DNA of 64,000 nucleotides from Centroscyllium fabricii. Taxonomy: Eukaryota. The notes beneath the pieces are model-generated. The model ran no database searches and was not told where the DNA came from. It was given only the letters and a program-made list of their open reading frames with translations. Below are positions 6,520 to 55,733 of this stretch, piece after piece (the stretch's first letter is position 1; every line of letters starts with the position of its first letter). Position numbers and translations under genes: made by a program. The stretch spans positions 439,890,001 to 439,954,000 of the forward strand of contig JBNRSN020000003.1 in NCBI GenBank assembly GCA_051313645.2. The letters are read 5' to 3'.

Positions 6520-8610
6520 CAGAAATTGGTATGAATGCTTAACATGTGCTTTGCATCAGTGGTTACAAAAGAGAAGGATACTGTGGAGGGAAATCCTGAA
6601 TTGGTTAAAAGGGAAATGAGATATTATTATAAATAAAAGGAAAGTATTAGAGAAGTTATTTGAGCTAAAGGAGGACAAAGTGCCAAGACTTGACAGGACA
6701 CATCTAAGCATCCTGAGGGATATGGGGAAAGAAATAGCAGAGGCCCTAAAAATATTTCAAGGTTCTATTGAGTGGCTGTGTGCCAGAGGACTGAAGAGCG
6801 ACCAAAGTAATACCCATTTTCAAAAAGACAGAGCTGACACAGCTAATTATAGGGCAGTAAATTTAACATTTGTAGTAGAAACATTTTTGAATTTTTAATT
6901 ACAGATGAAATTGCTAAATATTTAGGTGACAAATAATAAATAGAAGCAACCAACATAGAGAAAGGAAGATCACACTTTACAAACCTGGTACAGTGCTTTG
7001 AGGAGGTGAAGGAGGCAATGCAGTGTGTATCAACATTTACAAAGTTACACATAGGATACTTTTGGAGATAATTAAGGGGCATGAAACTAGAAGGGCAGCA
7101 AATTCGATTAAGAACTGGTTAGACAAGAGGAAATGGGGAGTAGAAGTTAAGAACAGTTTTCTCAGAATGAGTGGAAGTGGATGTTCTGGGACTGGACTGA
7201 TCCTGTTCTGGGACTGGACTGATCCCGTTCTGGGACTGGACTGATCCCGTTCTGGGACTGGACTGATCCCGTTCTGGGACTGGACTGATCCCGTTCTGGG
7301 ACTGGACTGACCCCGTTCTGGGACTGGACTGACCCCGTTCTGGGACTGGACTGACCCCGTTCTGGGACTGGACTGACCCCGTTCTGGGACTGGACTGACC
7401 CCGTTCTGGGACTCGACTGACCCCGTTCTGGGACTCGACTGACCCCGTTCTGGGACTGGACTGACCCCGTTCTGGGACTGGACTGACCCCGTTCTGGGAC
7501 TGGACTGACCCCGTTCTGGGACTGGACTGACCCCGTTCTGGGACTGGACTGACCCCGTTCTGGGACTCGACTGACCCCGTTCTGGGACTCGACTGACCCC
7601 GTTCTGGGACTCGACTGACCCCGTTCTGGGACTCGACTGACCCTGTTCTGGGACTCGACTGATCCTGTACTGGGACTGGACTGATCCTGTTCAATGTACA
7701 TCAATGATTTGTATATAGGCTGAGTGGAAGTGGTGTCCAAATTTGCAAACAATACTAAAATAGAATGTAAAGCAAATAATTCTGAGGACTAAAGGACACT
7801 GCAAGGGGAAACTGATAAGATGGTGGAACAGGCAAAAAAGTGGCAGATGGAATACATAAATTATTGCAAGGTGGTATATATTGATTTAAAAATAAAAGTA
7901 ATATTTATACTTTGAATGAGGGAAGGCTGGGTGATGTGGAACAGCACAAGGATTTGGTGGGGTGGGGGAGGAAATGGAAATTCAGGTTCACAAGATATTA
8001 AACGCATTGCCTCAAGTGGACCTAAACCTCTCTGCCTCGATCCTCCTTTAAGATGCTCCTTAAAACCTACCTTCATCTGCTCTAATATCTCTATGTGGCT
8101 TGATGTCAAATTTTATTTGATAACGCTCCTGTGAAGCACCTTGGGTGTTTCACTAAGTTAAAGGCACTATATAAATGCAAGTTGTTGTTGATGATGATGA
8201 AAAGGCCATAAAACAACTAATGGAATACTGAGTTTTACGGCACTAGGCATTGAATAGAATAGTCGAGATGTAATGGGGAATTTATGGAAAGCCTACAGTT
8301 TTGAGCTCCACGTTATAGTTAGGATGTTGAAGCAATAAAGATGGTGCTGCACAGATTCACTAGGATACTGCTCGACATGAGGGAATACAAATACAAAGGA
8401 AGACTTTAAAAATTGGTCTGTTTTGTCAGAACAGACGGGGTGATTTAACAAAGGTATTTAAATTTATGAAGCACTCAAACAGAGTAGTTAGAAACAGACA
8501 GTTTCCAGTTGTTGGGTTGAGAATGAGGGGACATATATCTTAAACATAAAAGATTTAGATCAGAGTGGAAGAAACCTTTTATTTTAAATACAGATAGTTG
8601 TGGAATTCAC
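6520..8610 (+). mobile_element. Old, highly degenerate CR1 ORF2 remnant
   Basis: Residual motifs (NYRAVNLT, YINDL, SKFANNTK-like) occur amid many stops and frameshifts. Confidence 0.65.
7183..7692 (+). repeat. 22-bp minisatellite GTTCTGGGACTGGACTGACCCC, about 23 copies
   Basis: Directly visible tandem array. The 22-aa periodicity of the overlapping ORFs equals 3 x 22 nt. Confidence 0.97.
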
Positions 8611-35387: not shown

Positions 35388-37077
35388 TGTAAGGAGCGTG
35401 CGCCGTATATTTTATTGTACGACTTGGGGTCCGTTACTGCCTTGCGCTAGCAGTCCGATAGGCCTCGCGCAATAACCTCCTCCCCCGCGAGCGGTTCGAA
35501 TCGCTCACCCTTACGGTTCTAGACGTTGGACTTAGGTGCAGGAGAAGAGAGAGAGACGAGATGGATACCGATTGGACTCAGATTTAGACTCGAATAAAAG
35601 TTTGCAAAGTTGGAAGATTTTATTACACCACAGGATATATTTACAGCAGTTAGGTTGTATTTCATCAGAACGACACAGTATGATACACCAACAATTGTTT
35701 CCCAAACAGATATATATATATATATACATACACAGGTAACTTATAGGATGGGGAACGCACGGCACATCGTAAATCGGGCAATGACTCTATAAATACACCC
35801 CAAATAAACCACCCTTCCCTCTATTGCCTAGCTATGTCCAGGTGTGTAGGATCGAGGCACATGCTCACCACTCGGTAATACTCGGGGTCTGCTACGAAGT
35901 TCCTCGTTTCCTCGGCTGCAGCGTCGGTCGTCACGTGGCTGTGGAAGATTCGGGAGTCCACTTGTTGTCTTCTCCCTTTGGGCGGCGGTCGCTCCTGCTC
36001 GGGCTGGTCCCGGACGGGTTCCTCGAGGCTGCTCTATCTCCTCGCACCAACCGCACCGTCTCCCTGGCTGAACCGGACCCTGGGGTATGCCGATCCTGCC
36101 CTCTCAAGCCGAACTGTAACGGGCTGCTAGCCTACTTGCTTTCCCACTCTTCGAACGCTAGCTTAATCGCCGTGTTCAACAAGATGCTTCACTGATGGGG
36201 CCCAACAACCAACTACCTCACCAGCAATGGTTTTCCGATGCGATACTGCCCTGACCCAACTCGACCGCTCTGCCAGAACCTTCACCCTGCTTGCCCTGCA
36301 CCCAGAAAGCTGAACTGGAGTCTTCGAAACGGAGAGCCCACCCAAAGTTACTGCTAACGCTCAAAAGTTCTTTTCCGAGACCTCACCGCTTCAAGAGGTC
36401 GATTCCACGAGTCAAGAGAGAGAAATCCAAACCCCCCTCCTCCAGGGAGTCCGAGATGAAGAGAGATTTTCAAGAGAGACCTTTCCAAGAGCTAAAGAGC
36501 TAAGCGAGAGAGCGAATTGTAGAAATGTGCTGCCAGTTATACCCCAAATGTTGAATGCCTAATGTCTTTCCCATTAGGGCCGGTATTTGTGTTTGGGAAA
36601 CGGTTATTGCATCCTTTTGTCCAGCCAAGCCTGCTGGTAATAGTTTTGATGGTGGCTCTAACTTCTCCGGTTAGAGTCCCATTGTTTTCAAGGGTGCTAA
36701 TCACTTTATGCTCGAAGGGTATACAATTTCTGTAGCTGGCTAAACAGGCCAGCTGCTTCGTATTTGCAGCTGTTTTGGGTGCTTATTTAACTGGGTGCAT
36801 TTCTTTGTGGGGCTAAGCGGTTTCTGAGGGGCAGGCTACTTATTTACAGGTTTAACAGCGCCTTCATGTCTGGTTTCTTCGCGGGCTTTTCGAATTGAGT
36901 TTTGGTTTCATTTTACACTATGCCATGTGGTCCGGCGGCCATTTTGGAGGCCCCTTTTCTCTGATCAGGCCGCAGCCTGTCCTGTCTGCCATTGTACAAT
37001 AAAAAAACATGTATACTCCATCCCTTCGTTTCTGGTCTTTGTAAATCCGTTTTGACTTGGAATATTGCGACCTTACA
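35388..37077 (-). repeat. 3' LTR (1690 bp)
   Basis: Direct repeat of 44500-46191. By eye it differs by about 4 substitutions and one 2-bp indel at a (TA)n tract. Confidence 0.97.
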
Positions 37078-37090
37078 GTCCCTCCTGTTG
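37078..37090 (-). other. Polypurine tract
   Basis: The minus strand reads AACAGGAGGGAC immediately before the 3' LTR TGT. Confidence 0.65.
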
Positions 37091-37933
37091 ATTAGCATAA
37101 CCCTGCTTAGCGAATCAATTAAGAAAGGTTGAGCAAGATTCCCGATCCTCCACACCTCAACTCTCCTGGTTACCTAAGTTAACTCTTGCCCCATGACACA
37201 TGCGGTTCCCATTCCCTTTGATCAACCTCGCATTGCCTTTACCCTGGGCAACGTATATTTACACAACCACGTCTTACACCTCCTGGTTCCTTCCACGTCT
37301 GCCAGGCCGATGCCTTCGTCTCCACCTGTTTATATCATTTATTAACTTGAAAGAGACATCACACAACCATCCGGAAAATATAAACACACACATCTCCCCT
37401 CATCAATCCCCCCATTTGTCCCAAAGTTTTTACAGTGTTCTGGCGGTCTTCTGCAGCCACCACCATCGGCTCGCTGGGATCTTCCTATCCCTCAACGGAA
37501 GTAAGTCCTTCTACCGATGATAGCGCCGGTCCTGGGTGCGATGGTCTCGATCCGGGGCACAGAAAACCAAGTCTCTCCACAAGCGGATTCCGACGTGCTG
37601 GGATGCTCCATTGGGTCCGTTCCCAGCCGTCCTTACTCCCCGGTGTGGCCCCGACTGGCCAGTCCATCTTTGATGGCCGCAAGCGTCATCAGAATCCCCG
37701 CCTCTCTGGGTTCTGTAATTAAACAAAGGGGTTGCCGGCCTCCCAAGAGCGCCTGGCTGTGGTGAGATGTGCACGCCTCCTGGACAGATCCCATATTACC
37801 TAAACACTCCCCTTCACCTTTATGCTTAACGTCACACTTTTAACAAAATTCAGAAATTAATTCGGGCTACTCCCTTGACACTACCAAACTTATTTCTCAT
37901 TATATACAGTGCCGCCTCTCCCGGGCGGCCTAC

Positions 37934-40900
37934 CTATCCCCTGTCAGGGTCGTAGCGGGCCGCTCCCCGTGGCGGTGCATTGCTGACCCTTCCCTTTGGT
38001 TCCCCGCAGCCTGTCGCTGCTTTTGATTCTCCGCAGCCTGGTGCTGCTTGTCGGGGGTGGATAATTATCCTTTTGCGGGGGCTTTTCCTGTACCTGAGGG
38101 CATATGACGGTTCTGGCCAAGCTTTCCTGGGCGGGGGTACCCTTTCCGATCGACGGAGGGTGCCTTTAGGTACTGCTCCCTGGGCCGACGAACTGAGGAC
38201 CGAGCCAGGTTGTGCTGCAGCCTGTGACTCCCTCACAGCTGCCAGCACCAACCCCTCTCCCTCCAGCTTCGCTTCCCTGGGACCGAGAGCCCCCTGGGCC
38301 GACGACCTGAGGACCGGGCCAGGTCGTGCTACAGCCTGTGACCCCGTCACATCTGTCAGCATCGACGCTCCCTCCTCTCGCCTCGTCGACGAACTGAAGG
38401 CCGGGCCGGATCGTGCTGCAGCCTGTGACTCCTTCACAGCTGCCAGCACCGACCCTCCCTCCTTCAGCTTCGCTTCCCCGGGACTGGGATCTCTTGCGGC
38501 TTCTGACCTCACCTCACCTATCTCCTCAGGTGGTGAGTCTCCGCCCGCTATCCCTACCTCTTCGGCATTCGAGTCGAGAACGGAACCCCCGTCCTCCGAC
38601 CCCTCCTGCTCCCCTGTGATTGACTCTAGCACTGGGTCGCGTAGGTCAATCAGGTCCAACCCTTGGTCGGGTTGGCCAATCGGGTCCAACACTTGGTCGT
38701 GTTGGTCCATCGGATCCAACACTTGGTCGGATTGGTCCGGCTCCTCCCCATCTGAATCCCACACAGCACGAGAGACCCTCCTCTCCTCCATCGGGGCCTC
38801 TCCTTTCACGCAGGCTACTTTACCTGCCTGCGCGACCTGTGGTCCTGCACTTGGCTGGGCGTTCCCACTCACAGGGCTTGCCCCTGTGGTCGACCCCTGC
38901 GTGCCCGACTTATACATTTTACATTGGTTTATATGAAACCACTTTGTGCGTCGGGGCACCTTCACCGCATAAACCATGGGGCTTGCCTTATCTACAATGC
39001 TGTAGGGCCCCATGTACAGTGGCTCTAAACTCCCGACCCGGGCATAGTTCCTCACCATGACCAGGTCTCCCACTTCCCATTCTTGCGTTCTTCGGGGCTC
39101 CAGCAACAGCTTGTTCCCCTGATGCTGTCTGCCCATGTTCCCTGCTGCCTGCTCGTGTACTCGCTTTAGGTGCTCGAACAGATTTTGGGCAAACCTGTCC
39201 TTCTTTACCTCCTCGAGCTGTCCTTCCGTGAGCACCGGAGCTAGTACATGAGTGGGGGTACGCATGGCCCTTCCAGTCATTAGCTCGTGCGGGGAATATC
39301 CCGTACTTTTCGACTGGCTGGCCCTGATCCCCATGAGGATTAAAGGCAGGATCTCCGCCCATTTCTGGGGCGAGCCCATCGCCTCTTTCCTCAACCGTTC
39401 CTTAAGGGTACGGTTCATGCGTTCCACAATTCCTGATGACTGGGGGTTGTGCGCTACGTGCCATTTCCCTTCAATGCCTAAGAGCATGAGGGTGTTCTGC
39501 ATGACCTGGCCGGTGAAGTGACTCCCCTGGTCGGACTCCACAAAACGGGGAAGTCCCCACCGTGAGAACACCTCCCGGACCAAAATCCTGGCAGTACCTA
39601 AAGCCGTAGCCGTCCTACAGGGGAAAGCTTCTACCCATTTGGAGAACACGTCCACCAGGACGAGACAATATTTATAGCCTCCCTGGGCGGTGGGTAGGGG
39701 CCCTATATAGTCGACTTGTATCGACTGCCACGGTCCCTCCACCCTCCTGACGTGCCCCATCTGCGCTTTCCTCCTTTGGGGGTCTGGGTTGTTCGCAGCG
39801 CACACCAGGCAGCTGGCGCAGAACTCGCGGGCATCTTCCCTGACTCCCGGCCACCACCCTGCCTGCTCCACCCGTTGCCACGTAACCTCTGGCCCGGGGT
39901 GCCCTGCTCCTGGACCCTCGTGGGCCAATTGGAGAAATTCCCTCCTGTGCTGCTGCGGCACAACCCACTGTTCCTCCCTGAACAACATTCCTTCCTTAAC
40001 GGAGAGGGTCGCCCTATTGTATGGGCCCTCTACCTGCTTGTCCTCACTAATAGCTTTGAGGACAGCTTTTAAAACGGGATCCTGGTTTTGGACCGCTTTG
40101 AGATCCAAAGGCAGGGGAACCCTGGGGCGGTTCCCCTCCTTATCCCGGATCGCTGCCACAGGTCCGGACCCGTAGGGGTCCCAGAAAGTGCCTTCACGAG
40201 CACCCTCCTTGGCCAGCGCATCCGCCCGCTGATTGCCTCCCCCACGTGGTTCCGTGGAAGAGTGAGCCTTCACCTTGTGGATGAAGATCTCCCCTTCTTC
40301 CCCTACTGCCGCTAGGATCTTCTCCAACAAGGGCTTTACTGTTAATGGCCGCCCGTCCACGGAAGTGTACCCGCGACGTGACCATATGGCCAGATACTCC
40401 GTGCACGAGTTGCACGTAAACATACTATCTGAACAAATTGTGTACGGGGTTGGGAAGGTCTCGGGGTGGGTTACCACGTACGCCACCGCCGACAGCTCGG
40501 CCTGCTGCGCGCTCATGGTGCGGGGAAGCTTAACCGCCAAGGCAATGTCTGCCGTAGGGTCAAAAATCCCGCAGCCCGTGAGTCGTTCGCCAGCCACCAC
40601 CGTGCTGGAACCATCAACATAGATCTCGCGGCCCGTGGGATGTATCCCGGCTCGCAGACCTATGTTCACCTCCCATACCCCCTCCACGGAACACCGATGG
40701 GTCGTTCCGGGGTACATCAAATTTGCTGCGAGCTTAGGCTCGCACAAACCCTCCACTTTTAAATCCATTTGGGACAACAGAAGAGTCCAGCGCGCAATTC
40801 TCGCGCTGCTCACGGTCCCATCCTTTATCCTCCCATCCAGGAGCATCCTGGTGGGCGTGTGGTGGGTGAGGAGAGTAATGGGAGAGGTTCCCGTGAAGAT

Positions 40901-42574
40901 TAATGATCTCTTCACGGCCCAATGCGTGGCTAAAAGATGCCGTTCGCAGTTGGAGAACCCCCTCTCTACCTCCGTGAGTACCCTTGAGGAATACACCACC
41001 GGTCGCAGCTTGCCGTGCCGCTCTTGGAGCAACACCGCGCTCAAGCTGTCCTCGCCGGCTGCTACCTCCAGGGAAAACTCCTTCCCCTCCTCTATGGCCC
41101 CCAGGGCTGGCGCGGTTTGCAAGTCCCTCTTCAACTTTTCAAACGCCGCCTGGCAGCCCTCATCCCATGACCACCCAACTCCCTTATGTAAGAGTCGGAG
41201 CAGCGGAGCTGCTGTGGCTGCATAGTCCTCTATGAAGTCTCTGCAATACCCGGTCAATTCCAAAAAGGACCTCACACCCTTTACGGTGGTCGGGATCGGT
41301 AGCTCCTGTACCGACTCCCTCCTGGCATTATCTATGGCCCTTTCCCCCGCGCGGATGGTCAGACCCAGAAACTTTACTTCTGTCTGGCCAATCCGTGCCT
41401 TCTTCGGGTTTATTTTAAAACCCTTCCTAGCCAGTAATTCCAGCAGCTCGCCTAGCAATGGCAAGTGCTCATCCCTCGTGTCCGTGAACAGGAGTAAGTC
41501 GTCCACGTACTGCACTATTTGATTGGGCTGACTAAACTCCTTTAAACTCCCTGCCATACACTGGTGGAAAATACTGGGGCTGTTGTGGAAGCCTTGCGGC
41601 AAACAATTCCACGTGTACTGCTGCCCTTTAAACGTAAAGGCAAACTTGTACTGATCCTCCCTCCGCAGCGGGATGGACCAAAACCCGTTGGAGATATCCA
41701 ACACCGTAAACACCGTGGCGGAAGCGGGAATACTCCCGATCAGGTCGGCAACTGCTGCCACCGTGGGCGCGCAGGCGGGGATGTTACTGTTGAGGACTCG
41801 ATAATCCACCGTGGCTCTCCATGAGTTGTCCGGCTTCTTTACTGGCCACAACGGAGAGTTCACATGGGTGGCTATCGGCCTCAACACGCCCTGCCGCACC
41901 AGTGAAGACATCGCTGTCTCCAGATCGGACTCCGCTTCCTTAGGGAAGTTATACTGTTTCTGGGGTCGGGACATGGGATCCCCCTGTACGCCATCCTCAA
42001 ACCCTAAGACCCTCCCGCAATCGTGCTTGTGGGTCGCAAAGGCGTTTATATTCCACGTTACGGCCGCCTGCATGTCGGCCGGAACCCCCTTGGACAAACT
42101 ATCGAGGTCGTAACCTCCGGACGGCTTCATGGTGCATAGGGTCCCCTTCTCTTCTTCCTCCCCTATGACCACAACTTCACCTCTTCCACTTTCGGCTGCC
42201 CATAAACAGTGGTTCCTTAGGTCGATCATGATCCCGTGTGCTCCCAGAAAATCTGCTCCTACTATACCTCTGCCACCTCCTTCTTCCCATTTCAGTAGGA
42301 TGCACTCCCAAGTGGTGTGGAGCGCTCCTAACTGAATGGAGAGTGGCCTAGAGCGCGCGCCCCCCTGTTCCTTGCCCGCAAACCCTGCTAATGCAAAAGG
42401 GACTCCGGTGGACATTGGGGAATTAAACGGCTTCTCTGTATGGATCACGGTGCATGAGGCCCCCGTATCCAACAGATAATTCCCCTCCTGTCTCTCCACC
42501 TCCATTTCCACCAGAGGTCTCCTCCATGCATCATAACGGAGCGGACACAGGTAAATGGGCAGCGCGGGTCTTAG
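37934..42574 (-). CDS. pol: Pol: protease, RT, tether (degenerate RNase H), RNase H, integrase and long low-complexity tail; in frame with gag
   Basis: YLLDTGAS; SPLWPVKKPDNSWR; LPQGFHNSP; YVDD (41498-41509); tether; IYVDGSS..SAQQAEL..SDS..VKAH..GNQRADALAK; HHCC; VDYIGPLP..SDQG..VERMN; GPY. The frame is open from the gag stop. Confidence 0.95.
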   Translation of the reverse strand, partial: LRPALPIYLCPLRYDAWRRPLVEMEVERQEGNYLLDTGASCTVIHTEKPFNSPMSTGVPFALAGFAGKEQGGARSRPLSIQLGALHTTWECILLKWEEGGGRGIVGADFLGAHGIMIDLRNHCLWAAESGRGEVVVIGEEEEKGTLCTMKPSGGYDLDSLSKGVPADMQAAVTWNINAFATHKHDCGRVLGFEDGVQGDPMSRPQKQYNFPKEAESDLETAMSSLVRQGVLRPIATHVNSPLWPVKKPDNSWRATVDYRVLNSNIPACAPTVAAVADLIGSIPASATVFTVLDISNGFWSIPLRREDQYKFAFTFKGQQYTWNCLPQGFHNSPSIFHQCMAGSLKEFSQPNQIVQYVDDLLLFTDTRDEHLPLLGELLELLARKGFKINPKKARIGQTEVKFLGLTIRAGERAIDNARRESVQELPIPTTVKGVRSFLELTGYCRDFIEDYAATAAPLLRLLHKGVGWSWDEGCQAAFEKLKRDLQTAPALGAIEEGKEFSLEVAAGEDSLSAVLLQERHGKLRPVVYSSRVLTEVERGFSNCERHLLATHWAVKRSLIFTGTSPITLLTHHTPTRMLLDGRIKDGTVSSARIARWTLLLSQMDLKVEGLCEPKLAANLMYPGTTHRCSVEGVWEVNIGLRAGIHPTGREIYVDGSSTVVAGERLTGCGIFDPTADIALAVKLPRTMSAQQAELSAVAYVVTHPETFPTPYTICSDSMFTCNSCTEYLAIWSRRGYTSVDGRPLTVKPLLEKILAAVGEEGEIFIHKVKAHSSTEPRGGGNQRADALAKEGAREGTFWDPYGSGPVAAIRDKEGNRPRVPLPLDLKAVQNQDPVLKAVLKAISEDKQVEGPYNRATLSVKEGMLFREEQWVVPQQHRREFLQLAHEGPGAGHPGPEVTWQRVEQAGWWPGVREDAREFCASCLVCAANNPDPQRRKAQMGHVRRVEGPWQSIQVDYIGPLPTAQGGYKYCLVLVDVFSKWVEAFPCRTATALGTARILVREVFSRWGLPRFVESDQGSHFTGQVMQNTLMLLGIEGKWHVAHNPQSSGIVERMNRTLKERLRKEAMGSPQKWAEILPLILMGIRASQSKSTGYSPHELMTGRAMRTPTHVLAPVLTEGQLEEVKKDRFAQNLFEHLKRVHEQAAGNMGRQHQGNKLLLEPRRTQEWEVGDLVMVRNYARVGSLEPLYMGPYSIVDKASPMVYAVKVPRRTKWFHINQCKMYKSGTQGSTTGASPVSGNAQPSAGPQVAQAGKVACVKGEAPMEERRVSRAVWDSDGEEPDQSDQVLDPMDQHDQVLDPIGQPDQGLDLIDLRDPVLESITGEQEGSEDGGSVLDSNAEEVGIAGGDSPPEEIGEVRSEAARDPSPGEAKLKEGGSVLAAVKESQAAARSGPAFSSSTRREEGASMLTDVTGSQAVARPGPVLRSSAQGALGPREAKLEGEGLVLAAVRESQAAAQPGSVLSSSAQGAVPKGTLRRSERVPPPRKAWPEPSYALRYRKSPRKRIIIHPRQAAPGCGESKAATGCGEPKGRVSNAPPRGAARYDPDRG

Positions 42575-44497
42575 TCATTGGGTTTCCACGTGAGGGGCTG
42601 CGGTGCCTGCGGAACCGGTGGCCACCGCTGCCTTCCCCTGGGAAGCCATATACAACTTCATGGCCCCCAGCGTGGACTCAATCGTCTCGGGACTTAAAGT
42701 CGCCCCGGCACCTCCTGTGGGAGCGGGTGCTCGGGTTGGGGCTACCTTCCCCTGGGAAGTCATATAAAACTTCATGGCTTCCAGCATGGACTCAATTGTT
42801 TCGGGACTTAGAGTGGCGCCGGCACCTCCTGTGGGAGTGGGTGCTCGGGCTGGGGCTGCGGGAGCTCTTTCCTTGACCTCCCTCCACGGGGCTCTACAGT
42901 CTCTGCGCCAGTGGCCTGCCTTCCCGCATCTATGACATGTAGACTGCCCCGGGTTGCCCCCCTCCTGATACCACTCTCTCTGCGCTGGGGCGTCTGCGTT
43001 AGTCGCATACACCTTCCCCTTATCGCAGTGCATCACCGAACTCCTCGTGTTTTTGTACCCAACCGTGAGTCGGTTGAGGACCGTCTCCTCTGTGGTTTGA
43101 GCATCGGTGGGGTCAAACCACACCTTAGCCTGCTCTCCAACGGCGGGTAGGCTGTTGGCAACGATACACCGGAGCCACTGGGCTCTCCCGGCGTCGCGCA
43201 AAACAGCCCATGCAGGTACATCTGGGCAGCTGCGCTGATACACAGGCCACAGCCTCCCGGCGAAAACCCGTGGGGGTTCTCCCTCCATCTGCACGGTCCT
43301 ACCCAGCCTTACAAACGGACCTTCATCGTCCATTCCCAGCACTTCTAAGACCTCATCCCGTAGGTCGTCATAGCCCTTATTCCCCCTCTTGCTCTCGTCG
43401 GAGAGACACTGAAGGATAGAGCTATCTAAAGAGAAAAGCAACATCCTGGCTTGCTCTCCTTCGTCACAGCCGTTTACCGCTGCTGCCTGTTCGACCTCCC
43501 TAAAATGCAGGGACGGATCGCCTGCTGCGGACAGCTTCCTAAAATGCCCTATCATGCTCCTTATTTGTTGCGAGCTATGGGGCACTATGACCTCATTCAA
43601 GATGGGCCCGGGATCCCCAGCCGCAGTGTCGGGACCCCGCCTCGTTTCTCGAACCGGACACATGGGTGCCGGGTCTGGATCCCCCATTTTGGGAACCTTC
43701 GCCGCCACCTCCTCTCTGTCCCCTTTCTCCCATGCTTGCGTATAGTGGGGTGATCGCGCGGGGAGCGCGGGGGCTGGTGCCTCCGGCGCCCTCCTCCTTA
43801 GCTTTGGCTTCGGGGGTTCCTTAACCACCTTTACCTCACCCACCGATGGGTCGATGAGGCACACCAGACCATTTGACCTGTTCAGGGCCTCCCTGAGGTC
43901 CTGAATCTCCTTTAAACAAGCGCCATGATCGGCGTCCTCATATTTGGTCTCAAGGGACATTTTGTACGCTGCCCTCATCCCCAGTAAATCCTCCTCCTGT
44001 GCCTTTAATTGGCCACTTAGGCGGACGCACCTTTCCCTGAGCTTCCCTTCACTTGACATGGCCTCTACTACTTGTCTTTCTAGGAGCTCGACCCTGGCCT
44101 CATGGCGGTTGGTCTTCACCTGGCGCTCATTATTCAGAGCCTCTAGCGCGGTGATTAACCGCTGCCCCCCTGAGACCTTTTCCTCCACTTCTAGGACTAA
44201 CCCCTTGATCTGCGCGGTCTGCGCCGCAATCACCTGGTCCGAAAGCTGGACCTGCTTTTTATAGCACATTAACCATACTGCTTTTTCTACTGCTTTTTTA
44301 TGCCCCTTGCTACCCGTCCAACGGATAGCTGCATCCAGTGGGCGTTTGTCTGCCAACAGGTCCCCAATCCACTGCTTTGTTAAATTCACTTTGCTGAACA
44401 CATAACCAGCAATCCTTTCCTCCATTACGCTTCTTTTATTCAAGGCTGAGTCCAATATATCTCTCTCCTGCTGCCAACGTCCTGCCGCGGTCGCCAT
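42575..44497 (-). CDS. gag: Gag (640 aa): N-terminal coiled-coil-like region, capsid-like region, one CCHC zinc knuckle
   Basis: CHRCGKAGHWRRDC knuckle and position between the PBS and pol. Confidence 0.92.
   Translation of the reverse strand: MATAAGRWQQERDILDSALNKRSVMEERIAGYVFSKVNLTKQWIGDLLADKRPLDAAIRWTGSKGHKKAVEKAVWLMCYKKQVQLSDQVIAAQTAQIKGLVLEVEEKVSGGQRLITALEALNNERQVKTNRHEARVELLERQVVEAMSSEGKLRERCVRLSGQLKAQEEDLLGMRAAYKMSLETKYEDADHGACLKEIQDLREALNRSNGLVCLIDPSVGEVKVVKEPPKPKLRRRAPEAPAPALPARSPHYTQAWEKGDREEVAAKVPKMGDPDPAPMCPVRETRRGPDTAAGDPGPILNEVIVPHSSQQIRSMIGHFRKLSAAGDPSLHFREVEQAAAVNGCDEGEQARMLLFSLDSSILQCLSDESKRGNKGYDDLRDEVLEVLGMDDEGPFVRLGRTVQMEGEPPRVFAGRLWPVYQRSCPDVPAWAVLRDAGRAQWLRCIVANSLPAVGEQAKVWFDPTDAQTTEETVLNRLTVGYKNTRSSVMHCDKGKVYATNADAPAQREWYQEGGNPGQSTCHRCGKAGHWRRDCRAPWREVKERAPAAPARAPTPTGGAGATLSPETIESMLEAMKFYMTSQGKVAPTRAPAPTGGAGATLSPETIESTLGAMKLYMASQGKAAVATGSAGTAAPHVETQ
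44479..44496 (-). other. Primer-binding site for tRNA-Arg(TCG)
   Basis: TGGCGACCGCGGCAGGAC lies 3 nt from the 5' LTR and is complementary to the vertebrate tRNA-Arg-TCG 3' end ...GTCCTGCCGCGGTCG-CCA (tRNA sequence recalled, not searched). Confidence 0.85.
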
Positions 44498-44499
44498 TC

Positions 44500-46191
44500 T
44501 GTAAGGAGCGTGCGCCGTATATTTTATTGTACGACTTGGGGTCCGTTACTGCCTTGCGCTAGCAGTCCGCTAGGCCTCGTGCAATAACCTCCTCCCCCGC
44601 GAGCGGTTCGAATCGCTCACCCTTACGGTTCTAGACGTTGGACTTAGGTGCAGGAGAAGAGAGAGAGACGAGATGGATACCGATTGGACTCAGATTTAGA
44701 CTCGAATAAAAGTTTGCAAAGTTGGAAGATTTTATTACACCACAGGATATATTTACAGCAGTTAGGTTGTATTTCATCAGAACGACACAGTATGATACAC
44801 CAACAATTGTTTCCCAAACAGATATATATATATATATACACATACACAGGTAACTTATAGGATGGGGAACGCACGGCACATCGTAAATCGGGCAATGACT
44901 CTATAAATACACCCCAAATAAACCACCCTTCCCTCTATTGCCTAGCTATGTCCAGGTGTGTAGGATCGAGGCACATGCTCACCACTCGGTAATACTCGGG
45001 GTCTGCTACGAAGTTCCTCATTTCCTCGGCTGCAGCGTCGGTCGTCACGTGGCTGTGGAAGATTCGGGAGTCCACTTGTTGTCTTCTCCCTTTGGGCGGC
45101 GGTCGCTCCTGCTCGGGCTGGTCCCGGACGGGTTCCTCGAGGCTGCTCTATCTCCTCGCACCAACCGCACCGTCTCCCTGGCTGAACCGGACCCTGGGGT
45201 ATGCCGATCCTGCCCTCTCAAGCCGAACTGTAACGGGCTGCTAGCCTACTTGCTTTCCCACTCTTCGAACGCTAGCTTAATCGCCGTGTTCAACAAGATG
45301 CTTCACTGATGGGGCCCAACAACCAACTACCTCACCAGCAATGGTTTTCCGATGCGATACTGCCCTGACCCAACTCGACCGCTCTGCCAGAACCTTCACC
45401 CTGCTTGCCCTGCACCCAGAAAGCTGAACTGGAGTCTTCGAAACGGAGAGCCCACCCAAAGTTACTGCTAACGCTCAAAAGTTCTTTTCCGAGACCTCAC
45501 CGCTTCAAGAGGTCGATTCCACGAGTCAAGAGAGAGAAATCCAAACCCCCCTCCTCCAGGGAGTCCGAGATGAAGAGAGATTTTCAAGAGAGACCTTTCC
45601 AAGAGCTAAAGAGCTAAGCGAGAGAGCGAATTGTAGAAATGTGCTGCCAGTTATACCCCAAATGTTGAATGCCTAATGTCTTTCCCATTAGGGCCGGTAT
45701 TTGTGTTTGGGAAACGGTTATTGCATCCTTTTGTCCAGCCAAGCCTGCTGGTAATAGTTTTGATGGTGGCTCTAACTTCTCCGGTTAGAGTCCCATTGTT
45801 TTCAAGGGTGCTAATCACTTTATGCTCGAAGGGTATACAATTTCTGTAGCTGGCTAAACAGGCCAGCTGCTTCGTATTTGCAGCTGTTTTGGGTGCTTAT
45901 TTAACTGGGTGCATTTCTTTGTGGGGCTAAGCGGTTTCTGAGGGGCAGGCTACTTATTTACAGGTTTAACAGCGCCTTCATGTCTGGTTTCTTCGCGGGC
46001 TTTTCGAATTGAGTTTTGGTTTCATTTTACACTATGCCATGTGGTCCGGTGGCCATTTTGGAGGCCCCTTTTCTCTGATCAGGCCGCAGCCTGTCCTGTC
46101 TGCCATTGTACAATAAAAAAACATGTATACTCCATCCCTTCGTTTCTGGTCTTTGTAAATCCGTTTTGACTTGGAATATTGCGACCTTACA
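44500..46191 (-). repeat. 5' LTR (1692 bp)
   Basis: Direct repeat of 35388-37077. Candidate TATAA at 45651-45655 (minus) and AATAAA about 25 nt before the LTR end. Confidence 0.97.
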
Positions 46192-51190: not shown

Positions 51191-54100
51191 TCAGCACTGT
51201 GTTATCAGTCTTTGTGGGGGTTTAACAGTCCGAGTAGATCTGCGAGGCAGTGTCGGTTCTGGCGAAGAATCGGGAGCAGTCGTAATCGGAAAAGACGCTG
51301 ACGGGGCTCCCGACGTGAACAGGGACTCCACCGGTGGAAGAGGTACCTCAGACACAGGAAGATCTGGTGGAGGTGTAGCAGCCGCCGGAAGAGTAGGCTG
51401 AGCAACATGATGAGCTCCGTCGTGCATTGTGAGTGACGAGGGCCCCGATGTAGTGTGCGCAGGTGAATGAAAAGATGGCCCCTGTTGTGAAAATGTGACC
51501 TGGGAGGGCAAGGGCTCCGCCAACGACTCTAAGTGAACGTCTCCAGCGGGCGCAAGGTTTCTAATCGAGACGGTATCCTCACGCCCATCTGGGTACTCCA
51601 CGTAGGCATACTGAGGGTTGGCATGCAGCAGGCGCACACGTTCAACAAGAGGGTCCGTCTTGTGTCCACGGACATGCCTTCTAAGCAGAACCGGCCCCGG
51701 GTTGGTGAGCCACGTCGGCAGAGACGTCCCCGAAGTCGATTTCCTAGGGAAAGAAGAGTTTCTCGTGAGGCGTGCAACCGGTGGCTGTACACAAGAGGGA
51801 ACGGGTAGTGTGGAGCACATCCTGGAGGACCTCCTGCCAGTGGGAGGTTGGAAGGCCTTTGTATCGAAGGGCCAGGGTGATGGCCTTCCAGATGGTCCCA
51901 TTATAACGTTCTACCTGACCGTTCCCCCGGGGGTTGTAACTGGTCGTTCTGCTCGAGGCAACCCCTCTCACGAGCAGAAAATGACGCAATTCGTCACTCA
52001 TAAATGAGGACCCCCCGGTCGCTGTGTATGAAGCCGGGAAGGCCGAAAATGGGGAATAGCGTGATAAAATGCTTTATCACTGTTGCACTCGTCATATCTG
52101 GGCATGGAAATGCAAAAGGGAAACGGGAGAACTCGTCGACCACAGTGAGAATGTACGAGTTACGGTTGGTAGAGGGGAGGGAACCTTTGAAGTCCACACT
52201 CAGGCGCTCGAATGGTCGGGTGGCCTTGATGAGGTGCGCCCTGTCAGGCCTGTAAAACTGGGGCTTGCACTCAGCACAGACAGGGCATTCCTGCGTCATC
52301 GCCTTGATCTCCGCAATGGAATAAGGGAGATTGCGTGATTTGACGAAGTGAGCGAGCCTGGTGACCCCCGGGTGGCAGAGATTAGCGTGGAGGGTGTTCA
52401 GACTACCCGACTGGGCGCTGGCACACGTTCCTCGGGACAGGGCGTCCGGGGGATCGTTAAGCTTCCCTGGCCGGTACAGAATGTTGTACTCAAAAGCGGA
52501 GAGTTCGATCCGCCACCTGAGGATCTTGTCATTCTTGATTTTACCCCTCTGTTTATTGTGGAACATAAACGCTACTGACTGCTGGTCAGTAAGAAGGGTA
52601 AATCGTTTACCGGCCAAATAGTGGCGCCAGTGGCGCACTGCTTCCACGATTGCTTGGGCCTCCTTTTCCACTGAAGAGTGGCGGACTTCAGGGCCCTGTA
52701 GGGTACGGGAGAAGAAAGCGATGGGCCTGCCTACCTAGTTGAGGGTGGCGGCCAGGGATAAGTCTGAGGCATCGCTTTCGACCTGGAAGGGGAGAGACTC
52801 ATCAATGGCGTGCATGGTCGCCTTGATGACGTCTTGCTTGATATGCAAAAAGGCAATTTGGGCCTCTAACGGGAGCGGGAAGGAGGTAGCCCTGAGGAGA
52901 GGCCAGGCCTTATCAGCATAATGGGGCACCCATTGTGCATAGTAAGAGAAAAACCCCAGGCATCTCCTCAAAGATTTGGGGGAGTGCGGTAGGAGCAGCT
53001 CCTGAAGGGGGCGCATACGTTCGGGATCGGGGCCGAGGACCCCGTTCTCAATTACGTAGCCAAGAATAGCCAACCGGTTAGTGTTGAAAACGCACTTATC
53101 CTCATTGTAAGTGAGGTTCAGACGCTGGGCCGTACGGAGAAACCTGTCCAAATTGGAATCATGATCTTGCTGGTCATGGCCGCAGATCGTGACATTGTCC
53201 AAATACGGGAATGTGGCCTGCAAATGATACTAGTCAACCATTCGGTCCATCTCCCGTTGGAAGACCGAAACTCCGTTGGTAACCCCAAAGGGGACCCGGA
53301 GGAAGTGAAAAAGGCGCCCATTTGCCTCGAAGGCAGTGTATTTACGGTCCTCAGCTCTGATGGGGAGCTGGTGATAGGCCGACTTAAGGTCGATGGTGGA
53401 GAAGACCTTATACTGGGCAATCTGATTGACCATGTCATTTATCCTAGGAGATAAGCGTCGAGCCCAGTGTAGCGGTTTATGGTCTGACTATAGTCGATGG
53501 TCTGACTATAGTCAATGACCATGCGCTGTTTGTCGCCAGACTTAACCACTACCACCTGGGCCCGCCACGGGCTGTTACTGGCCTCGATGATGCCCTCCCG
53601 TAACAACCGAGCACCCTCTGCCTTGATAAAGGTGCGGTCCCCCGCGCTGTATCGCCGACTCTTGGTTGCAATGGGCTTGCAGTCAGGGTCAAGGTTGGCG
53701 AACAGCGAGGGGGTGTCTATCTTCAAGGTAGACAGACCGCAAGAGGAGTCTGGTTGTGAGGCAGGGCAGTCGCGGCTGCTGACCGTGAGAGGAGGCAGGG
53801 GACCGCCGTACGCCATCGTCACGCTCTGCAGATGGTACTGGAAGTCCAGGCCAAGCAACACAGGGGCGCAGAGCTGTGGGAGGACGTACAGTGGAAAGTT
53901 GCGGTATGTCGTCCCCTTCACAGTAATAGTGACTGTACAGCAGCCGATGACGTCCACAGTCTGGGACTCGGAGGCGAAGGAGATTTTATGATGTGTGGGC
54001 CTAACCCTGAGGGAATAACGGTGCACCGTATCAGGGTGTATGAAGCTCTCCATACTCCCAGTGTCGAACAGACATCGGGTGAGGTGCCCCTCTACCCGGA

Positions 54101-54311
54101 TGGGCATCATTGATAACGAGAGACTGGTTGAGGGCCGTAGAGGCAAGTGTGGTGTGCGCGCTGGGGCCCTTGTGCCATGCAGGGTCCGCGGGTGATGGCG
54201 GCGCCCGTGATTCACACGCGGCGGGCCGCGGTGGCGTTTCGGACCGTTGGGAGGACCGCTGGGTGAGTCACCGAGAAAGCCATTGGGAGGACCGAAGGGC
54301 TCGTGGCGCAC
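51191..54311 (-). pseudogene. pol: Gypsy pol (protease, RT, RNase H, integrase) with stops and frameshifts
   Basis: LFDTGS; IDLKSAYHQ; VPFGVTN; YLDN; SDAS..EKEAQA..LTDQ; HHCC; SVDFKG..HSDRG..VERYN. Confidence 0.9.
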
Positions 54312-55676
54312 AAGCGCCAGAATGCTGAATTGCCCTGGAGTTGCCTGTTGCTGCTGCCAGGATCATTGTAGTTTCTTCTAAGCTGCCTGTTGCTGCTGCA
54401 GCCTGTGTTGGTAAGTTTGCCCTACACAAAGATGGTGGCATCACGTGATGGGGCGGGGCCGCTGCCGCCGGGATGCGCGTTGTCCTATACAAAGATGGCG
54501 GCATCACGTGATGGGGCAGGGCCGCTTCTGCCGCGATGCGAGTTGTCCTATACAAAGATGGCGGCGTCACGTGATGGGGCGGGTCGCTGCTGCCGGGATG
54601 CAGGAAGATGGCGGCGTTACGTGATGGGGCGGGGCCTCTACTGCCGGGATGCGAGTTGCCCGCATCAAAGATGGCGGCGCCCTGTGCTGGGACGCTGCCG
54701 CTGCTGCTAGGAGGCCCGACGAAGAAGAAGATGCCCGCACCCCCAAAGATGGCGGAGCACGGGAAACGACGTTGGCAGGCCGCATCCGAGGCAAGGTAGG
54801 TAGCAATCGTTCTGGGGGCTGCTGTTGGGGGGCGCCAGGTACCTGAGGCCACTCTGTGGCGTGGACATCGCAGGCTGCTGCCGTTTTCCTTGCTGATTCC
54901 GGGGCCGATCGGCAGACCTTCGCAAAATGGCCCTTCTTGCCACATTTGGAGCAGGAAGACGCCTTTGCTGGACAGAAGCTTCGTGGATGGTGTTTCTGGC
55001 CACAAAAAAAGCATTTCAGAGGCGCTGGCTGTCCAGATGGCGCCATGGCCGCCACGGTCGCCGTCATCGAACACGAGTCCCAAGGCCCAGGGGAAACCAC
55101 ATGGGAGCCGTGCCCCGTGTACGAATCCAGGCTCCGGAGGGCCCCATCCACCACGTTGGAAAGCTTCACCGCCTCATTCAGGGACAAATTATCCTGCTCG
55201 AGCAGGCGGGTGCGAGCTGGGGCCGATCTGATGCCTGCCACGTAGGCATTATGGACGAGGAGGTCCATGTGCTCCTGGGCGTTAACAGGAGCGCATCCGC
55301 AGCGCAGAATGAGAGCTTGAAGAGCCTCCAGGTACTCCTCATTCGACTCACCATGCTGTTGCCTCCGCGTGGCGAGTAGATGGCGAGCATAGACGGCTTT
55401 GACTGGCTGGAGGAATTGAGCCTTCAGTAGCTCCATCGCTGCATCGTATTCCGTGGCGCTCTTGATGATGGAATACACCCTGCCACTCACGCAGGAGACC
55501 AGGACTCGTCTCTTGTGCGCGTCGCTGACTCCGGCCACAACAAGGAACGATTCAAAACAGCTCAGCCAGTGTTCGAAATCATTTGACGCGTTCGGTGCCT
55601 GGGGGTTGAGGTCGAGAGTTTTGGGTTTTAGGTCTGTCTTCCAAATCTCAGAAGTTGCTGGCTGTTGCTGGTTCAT
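54268..55676 (-). pseudogene. gag: Gypsy gag with tandem zinc knuckles
   Basis: FEHWLSCFESF; CFFCGQKHHPRSFC and CSKCGKKGHFAKVC form a double knuckle, as in the Mag clade. Frameshifted in the repeat region. Confidence 0.85.
54421..54680. repeat. ~63-bp GC-rich minisatellite (about 4 copies) between the gag knuckles and protease
   Basis: Unit CCTATACAAAGATGGCGGCATCACGTGATGGGGCGGGGCCGCTGCCGCCGGGATGCGAGTTGT. Confidence 0.9.
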
Positions 55677-55733
55677 TTTAAAAATTCTTGTGAATAAAAT
55701 TGTGAAGCCTCAAATCAAAGTCGACAGCTTGTT

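Follow-up and report, generated by a model that had tools for sequence, protein, structure and literature searches.

The window analysed here, a stretch of 64,000 nucleotides (nt) of Centroscyllium fabricii DNA (contig JBNRSN020000003.1), contains a single copy of an endogenous retrovirus (ERV) whose gag and pro-pol genes lie in one reading frame, separated by an in-frame TGA. The junction is real and conserved and is most likely a readthrough site, as predicted from its sequence, and synthesis of Gag-Pro-Pol by UGA readthrough, which we consider probable, is the best explanation for it. Both the element and its gag/pol junction are on the minus strand, and all positions are those of the whole stretch.

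The gag/pol junction and its conservation

Direct reading of the minus strand showed that gag ends with CAA (42580-42578), TGA (42577-42575), CTA (42574-42572) and AGA (42571-42569), and that pol continues in the same frame, as an earlier note on this DNA had reported. The fusion would comprise 640+1+1546 = 2187 residues, the length given in that note, and the TGA is the single stop across 2187 codons. The first in-frame ATG past the stop lies at 42505 and is preceded by 23 sense codons; the earlier note, which gave no strand, had counted 21, and had called the ATG annotated, though nothing is annotated there. Based on base composition, 23 open codons are expected by chance with p ~0.39, a shared frame occurs in 1 of 3 cases, and TGA-CTA has a chance of ~0.4% given a stop. 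On these figures, the open stretch by itself carries no signal and the junction of this single copy is only suggestive; the weight comes from its conservation.

To profile the junction in other copies, contigs from 4 of 24 listed sequencing runs were placed on positions 42200-42900 (2196, 18, 3 and 13 contigs), with run X19 not covering the junction. The counts below refer to 40 of the 113 variant rows, 16 of the 52 loose-end rows and 27 of the 2230 pieces. None of these variant rows falls within 42569-42578, and one contig from run X16 spans the junction without any difference. Besides the form in the window, five junction types were read by hand in register. Type (a), in contig 22 of run X20 (~95% alike), has ACA as the last gag codon with stop and CTA unchanged, as judged from absent variant rows, with 25 of the 29 differences of this contig traceable. 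In type (b), from runs X1 (6 contigs) and X16 (1 contig), the match ends exactly at the stop, which is placed by that end point, and the last gag codons differ, ending in AAG. Types (c) (run X1, 1 contig; AAG-TGA-CTA-AAG) and (d) (run X20, 2 contigs; CAA-TGA-CAT-CAG) were seen directly. The last is CmiERV lineage I of the elephant shark: in its sequence as given in the supplement of PMC4422223, the frame was followed by eye from the Gag knuckle to CAA-TGA-CAT-GTT. The junction of CmiERV scaffold 324, unreadable in one frame by eye, was left outside the count.

TGA followed by C was found in 6/6 types, CTA in 4/6 and a sense codon in 0/6, while the flanking codons vary; the six types are related and do not represent six independent events. 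Conservation of TGACTA, which the earlier note proposed to check, therefore holds for TGA-C and only partly for CTA, which is replaced by CAT in 2/6. Of four skate Gag proteins, three terminate at the column where gag ends here, the fourth being short with a different tail, although the codon itself is not visible in proteins. Among the 40 variant rows, 28 are synonymous, including both of the two between stop and ATG, and both frames are therefore under selection. Judged from these comparisons, the TGA stop is conserved rather than copy-specific, and the signal that has been kept is UGA-C.

These data bear on the possibility that the TGA arose by nonsense mutation within a gag-pol frame that was once uninterrupted, and that a defective lineage using Pol in trans has spread it. 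ERVs do accumulate stops, and the window offers a single copy; the earlier note had named a sense codon in most other copies as the sign of such a mutation, and the six types have none. The position of the stop is the same across subfamilies with different last gag codons, in skate Gags that are ~60% identical and in the elephant-shark CmiERV-I. Moreover, pol is intact with mostly synonymous variation, and no fused Gag-Pol relative was found among 7998 candidates, which is weak evidence. We regard this explanation as highly improbable, and conservation of the aligned junctions already largely refutes it.

Protease start and possible routes to Pol

The codons between the stop and the ATG are assigned to the protease by homology and modelling. 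Residues 16-46 past the stop align ungapped to HIV-1 protease residues 5-35, with W-x-R-P-L-V and L-L-D-T-G-A common to both proteins, and the R-P-x-V motif that the earlier note expected at a retropepsin N-terminus is present as R-P-L-V. The Met corresponds to about HIV residue 13, and the codons ahead of it are therefore predicted to be protease. Taken by itself, the HIV protease match is weak, with a best E of 0.013 for monomer chains and 1.9e-6 for tethered dimers, and the Pfam RVP match, which begins ahead of the ATG, is below the curated cut-off (E 0.0025). AlphaFold modelling of the first 325 residues from an alignment of 29 rows (mean per-residue confidence (pLDDT) 75) placed a strand at residues 7-11, with a block pLDDT of 83-92 over residues 11-30. 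Superposition of the model on HIV protease (99 residues) covered 98 columns, at TM 0.72-0.74 depending on the target. The alignment and the modelled strand agree with the view of the earlier note that these codons are part of the enzyme.

In 4/4 frog relatives inspected, the protein is annotated from a Met three residues ahead of the catalytic Asp, and the pol ATG of the window is therefore not shared with these four. Many frog proteins named 'NYNRIN-like' (among P0004-P0007 and P0214-P0226) are intact Pols of this ERV group. They start just ahead of the protease active site, and their true start must lie upstream, meaning that database Pol proteins of this group carry truncated proteases in their annotation.

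In the proposed mechanism, full-length RNA would be translated from the gag ATG, with most ribosomes halting at the UGA and releasing Gag. A few per cent would decode the UGA with a near-cognate tRNA, owing to the following C (here CUA A), and continue to the 2187-residue Gag-Pro-Pol, giving a high Gag:Pol ratio and enzymes tied to the particle. Local context rather than a 3' structure probably drives the event. A type II signal (UGA followed by CUA or CGG) is present in this copy and three related junction types, with CAU in the two others. The UGA-CUA context is leaky, as the earlier note stated: published values are 1.5% readthrough for UGA-CUA alone (PMC4132726) and 0.4-2% for the Sindbis UGA-CUA with 3 nt (PMC3159437). 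The level in the element would likely resemble the 1-2% of bare UGA-CUA in published reporters. In-frame stop suppression is also the strategy given for snakehead retrovirus (SnRV), for gamma- and epsilonretroviruses and for XtERV-S. Observed here are the anatomy, the homology to protease ahead of the ATG and the conservation of UGA-C; that readthrough occurs, its level and its dependence on local context are inferred. The earlier proposal of Gag-Pol synthesis through UGA-CUA is thus supported by anatomy and UGA-C, less so by the variable CUA, with readthrough itself a prediction.

Several observations weigh against UGA readthrough. The CUA is not invariant, with CAU in its place both in the X20 subfamily and in CmiERV-I, the junction lacks the G of the strong vertebrate CUAG motif, and a sense-codon form may occur in a minority of copies, among rows beyond the 40/113 and 16/52 considered. 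Alphaviruses gain 3- to 14-fold from a 3' structure (PMC3159437), and no conserved extended 3' stem-loop was supported here in folds of 60-180 nt or 248 nt. The stimulatory structure for which the earlier note proposed folding was not recovered in the 60-180 nt past the stop (z +0.3 to -1.7). A 248-nt fold at the junction reached z -2.6, but came 10th when 38 windows of that size along gag-pol were compared (mean z -1.9). Of the 11 variant sites at its paired positions, 9 disrupt the pairing and none is compensated; this hairpin was rejected as a stimulatory structure on both the window-rank and covariation controls. In the gag-UGA-pol element Tca2, the sequences flanking the stop failed to direct readthrough when assayed with reporters in yeast (PMC2194720), so that a gag-UGA-pol arrangement need not act as a simple leaky stop. 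Finally, the pol ATG has a strong Kozak context, a Met occupies the same column in the related protein P0003 and, by eye, in CmiERV-I, and the closest solved reverse transcriptase (RT) is that of foamy virus, which makes its Pol from a spliced RNA.

The last three points, together with two donor-like sites early in gag, would fit separate production of pol, from a spliced or internally started RNA beginning at the ATG at 42505 (in the style of foamy virus or the Tca2 promoter), or removal of the stop by splicing. A start at 42505 would, however, drop ~12 protease residues including the conserved W-R-P-L-V segment, and the frog relatives have no Met at that column. By a crude score, no good splice acceptor lies near the stop: AGs within 80 nt have 7-12 pyrimidines in 20, and the 20 AG sites with at least 14, out of 941, all lie elsewhere. 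The AG after the stop is absent in CmiERV-I. No splice joints were listed in the 701 nt covered by contigs, a short stretch and a weak test. Separate production would also leave the retention of UGA-C and the shared gag/pol frame unexplained, and we consider it unlikely.

Non-standard bypass of the stop on full-length RNA, by codon editing, selenocysteine insertion or a distant or protein-dependent signal, has been argued for Tca2, which supplies a precedent (PMC2194720). The lack of a local 3' structure at the junction, and the CAU variants, which are not a classic type II context, would suit such a route, as would the several windows deeper in pol that fold more stably than shuffles. On the other hand, comparison of the 11 kb element with Rfam, including the selenocysteine insertion sequence (SECIS) families, gave 0 matches up to E 1, the stop letters are unchanged in the rows considered, including those of a run guessed to be RNA, and UGA-C is enough for low readthrough in published assays. 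This route appears less likely still than separate production, and ordinary UGA readthrough is preferred to both.

The stable pol windows (248 nt; 39,400-41,100 and 38,400-38,800, minus strand) have z -3.1 to -4.8. They are more stable than the junction and could possibly be packaging or other cis signals.

Relationships and comparison with known systems

We file the element as a young, spuma-related (class III-like) ERV that lacks env and resembles SnRV in the wide sense only. Its layout is retroviral, with long terminal repeat (LTR)-gag-pro-pol, a tether and a second RNase H, based on a Pfam scan and LTR alignment. Named relatives are a skate Gag (59-61% identity), a sevengill-shark RT piece (66%) and the Pols of frogs and coelacanth, which are 42-53% identical across the RT core; these matches point to a cartilaginous fish as the probable host. 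Among solved RT structures, foamy virus scored 171 bits, murine leukemia virus (MLV) 150, Ty3 113, HIV-2 66 and HERV-K 64, a ranking of similarity and not phylogeny. The LTR ends TGT...ACA are a feature of class III or spuma-related elements (clade Huo in the wide sense), as stated in PMC8278194.

A tree was built from 30 RT-tether rows picked from our own matches, with loki and Gypsy labels assigned by motif or source name and CmiERV-I not among the rows. The element fell among canonical retroviruses, apart from loki-like and Gypsy rows (100/99), and grouped with frog and coelacanth ERVs (89/92). The RT of P0052, which matches the published SnRV row, is 45% identical to the element over the RT core. 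Sisterhood with SnRV was not recovered (constraint p-AU 0.04, approximately unbiased test, for a group named after the tree was seen).

Three assignments were rejected. A lokiretrovirus (Odin) origin conflicts with L-P-Q-G-F in the element versus C/M-P-F-G-Y in published Loki rows, and a loki grouping had p-AU 0.007. ERV-L elements, described in PMC8278194 by YIDD, no Cys-His box, a dUTPase and a 5-bp duplication, differ from the element in its YVDD, CCHC and 4-bp duplication, with no dUTPase in the Pfam scan. Spumaretrovirinae make Pol from a spliced RNA in another frame and lack CCHC, whereas here pol is in the gag frame and CCHC is present. No related loci were found in viral or metagenome contigs with a single-protein query, or in viral contigs with an alignment query; the alignment search of metagenomes gave four loci at 28-29%, which were too distant and were not used. 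TGACTA occurs at 106 places in the Loki supplement, of which 2 were inspected and were uninformative.

The closest counterpart of the junction is that of CmiERV-I (PMC4422223, scaffold 2). Read by eye, its stop is followed by ~31 sense codons with L-C-x-P and R-P-F-I-S-M ahead of the protease active site, and its RT motifs are similar. It differs in the CAT after the stop, the presence of env, and its age and damage further on. A term search of the main text of PMC4422223 returned none of stop, readthrough or gag. SnRV and other clade Huo or class III ERVs resemble the element in the order protease-RT-tether-RNase H-integrase, YVDD, one CCHC knuckle, and gag and pol in the same frame. SnRV differs in its UAG-GGC junction (PMC13517186), and its env and accessory open reading frames (ORFs), and was not recovered as the sister of this group on the tree.

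An in-frame UGA between gag and pol, presumed to be read through, is also described for SSSV (the swim bladder sarcoma virus of salmon), zebrafish ERV (ZFERV), the cane-toad RMERV and XtERV-S, whose gag-pol junction is given as TGA. The earlier contrast, in which gamma- and epsilonretroviruses use UAG, was therefore too strong. SSSV, ZFERV and RMERV are described as epsilon-related and XtERV-S as ERV-L-related. Their contexts differ from that of the element, being UGA-AGA in SSSV, UGA-CGA in ZFERV and UGA-AGU in the toad ERV, and PMC13517186 lists none of them with CUA. In the table of the same review, Sindbis virus has the identical seven letters UGA CUA A, and Venezuelan equine encephalitis virus (UGA-CGG) has CAA ahead of the stop, as in the element. 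Compared with the type II signals of alphaviruses and of cellular genes with UGA-CUAG, the element is without a supported extended stem-loop and without G at +7, and the alphaviruses are an unrelated virus family. The type III signal of MLV is alike in purpose and layout, with one stop between gag and pro, and differs in having UAG-G, an 8-nt spacer and a pseudoknot (PMC13517186).

Retroviral UGA gag-pol junctions and in-frame stop suppression are already known, and the general picture is unchanged; what looks new is confined to the finding of an alphavirus-like UGA-CUA context in a retrovirus. No published report of a retroviral UGA-CUA junction or of the junction of this family was found in a search covering open texts, outside most subscription papers, Repbase, figures and most supplements. 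The gammaretroviral UAG with pseudoknot is the one case in which retroviral readthrough has been worked out, and a 2026 review (PMC13517186, section 4.1.2) calls epsilonretroviral readthrough unverified, and the signals in fish and frog retroviruses unverified and undefined. Since it includes an element that is both young and intact, and CUA and CAU occur in it as natural variants, this family is suited to asking if a type II signal made up of context only is in use in a retrovirus. We give slightly less than even weight to the broader proposal that a spuma-related retrovirus lineage of cartilaginous fish sets its Gag:Pol ratio by UGA-C without a 3' structure, with CUA and CAU tuning the level; this would be the first retroviral UGA-CUA signal, old and common to chimaera and shark/skate elements.

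Anatomy of the element and its surroundings

Coordinates of the features of the ERV in the window
Feature	Position	Strand	Basis or remark
Whole element	46191-35388	-	~11 kb
5' LTR, ~1.69 kb, termini TGT...ACA	44500..46191	-	LTR-LTR alignment
Primer-binding site, overlaps first gag codons	44479..44496	-	starts 3 nt past LTR end
gag, 640 aa, one CCHC knuckle, C-terminal 38-aa duplication	42578..44497	-	ATG at 44497
In-frame TGA separating gag and pro-pol	42575..42577	-	read in sequence; kept in relatives
CTA immediately 3' of stop, type II readthrough context	42572..42574	-	CAT in two related junction types
23 sense codons ahead of first ATG, predicted protease start	42506..42574	-	W-R-R-P-L-V motif; modelled strand at residues 7-11
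pro-pol frame, 1546 codons, ends TAG 37936-37934	37934..42574	-	ORF and Pfam
3' untranslated stretch with polypurine tract	37079..37933	-	no env-sized ORF
3' LTR, then 4-bp target-site duplication AGCC	35388..37078	-	inside LINE-like repeat

The Pfam scan gave the pro-pol order as protease, RT (YVDD), tether, RNase H, integrase, an SH3-like domain and a low-complexity tail. The two LTRs are 99.65% identical (4 mismatches and 1 gap over 1693 columns); 4 substitutions in ~1690 nt suggest a recent insertion, ~5 million years ago at the shark rate assumed in PMC4422223. Contig depth, summed over run X1, suggests that the family is large, and is not a copy number. No ATG-started ORF of more than 70 codons was found in the 855 nt from the end of pol to the 3' LTR, where env would be sought; env loss is common among ERVs.

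The LTRs are unusually long (1.69 kb) and hold the strongest splice-acceptor-like sites of the element (44642 and 45605). AATAAA is present at 44736 and again at 44528, where it lies 28 nt from the end of the LTR, directly ahead of gag. The gag ATG lies 2 nt past the 5' LTR and overlaps the primer-binding site, with no leader between the two, and the site itself encodes the start of Gag, which reads M-A-T-A-A-G here and M-A-T-T-K-G in the skate protein. The primer is probably tRNA-Arg, and the two forms of the site presumably correspond to different tRNA-Arg(UCG) isodecoders; a tRNA gene search found 0 genes.

Near its 3' end, gag carries a tandem 114-nt duplication at 42627-42857 (minus strand; 38 aa, 89% alike) that is absent from the skate Gag. 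The acidic and repetitive Pol tail of ~320 aa follows the SH3-like domain of the integrase (37937-38900, minus strand) and has internal DNA repeats at 38175-38738, while the frog relatives stop directly after the SH3-like part.

Elsewhere in the window, a second, broken element of Ty3/Gypsy type lies at 51200-55700 on the minus strand, with pieces of a PNMA-type gag, CCHC, protease, RT, RNase H and integrase in several frames. A tandem array with a 22-nt unit in ~30 copies occupies positions 7073-7780.

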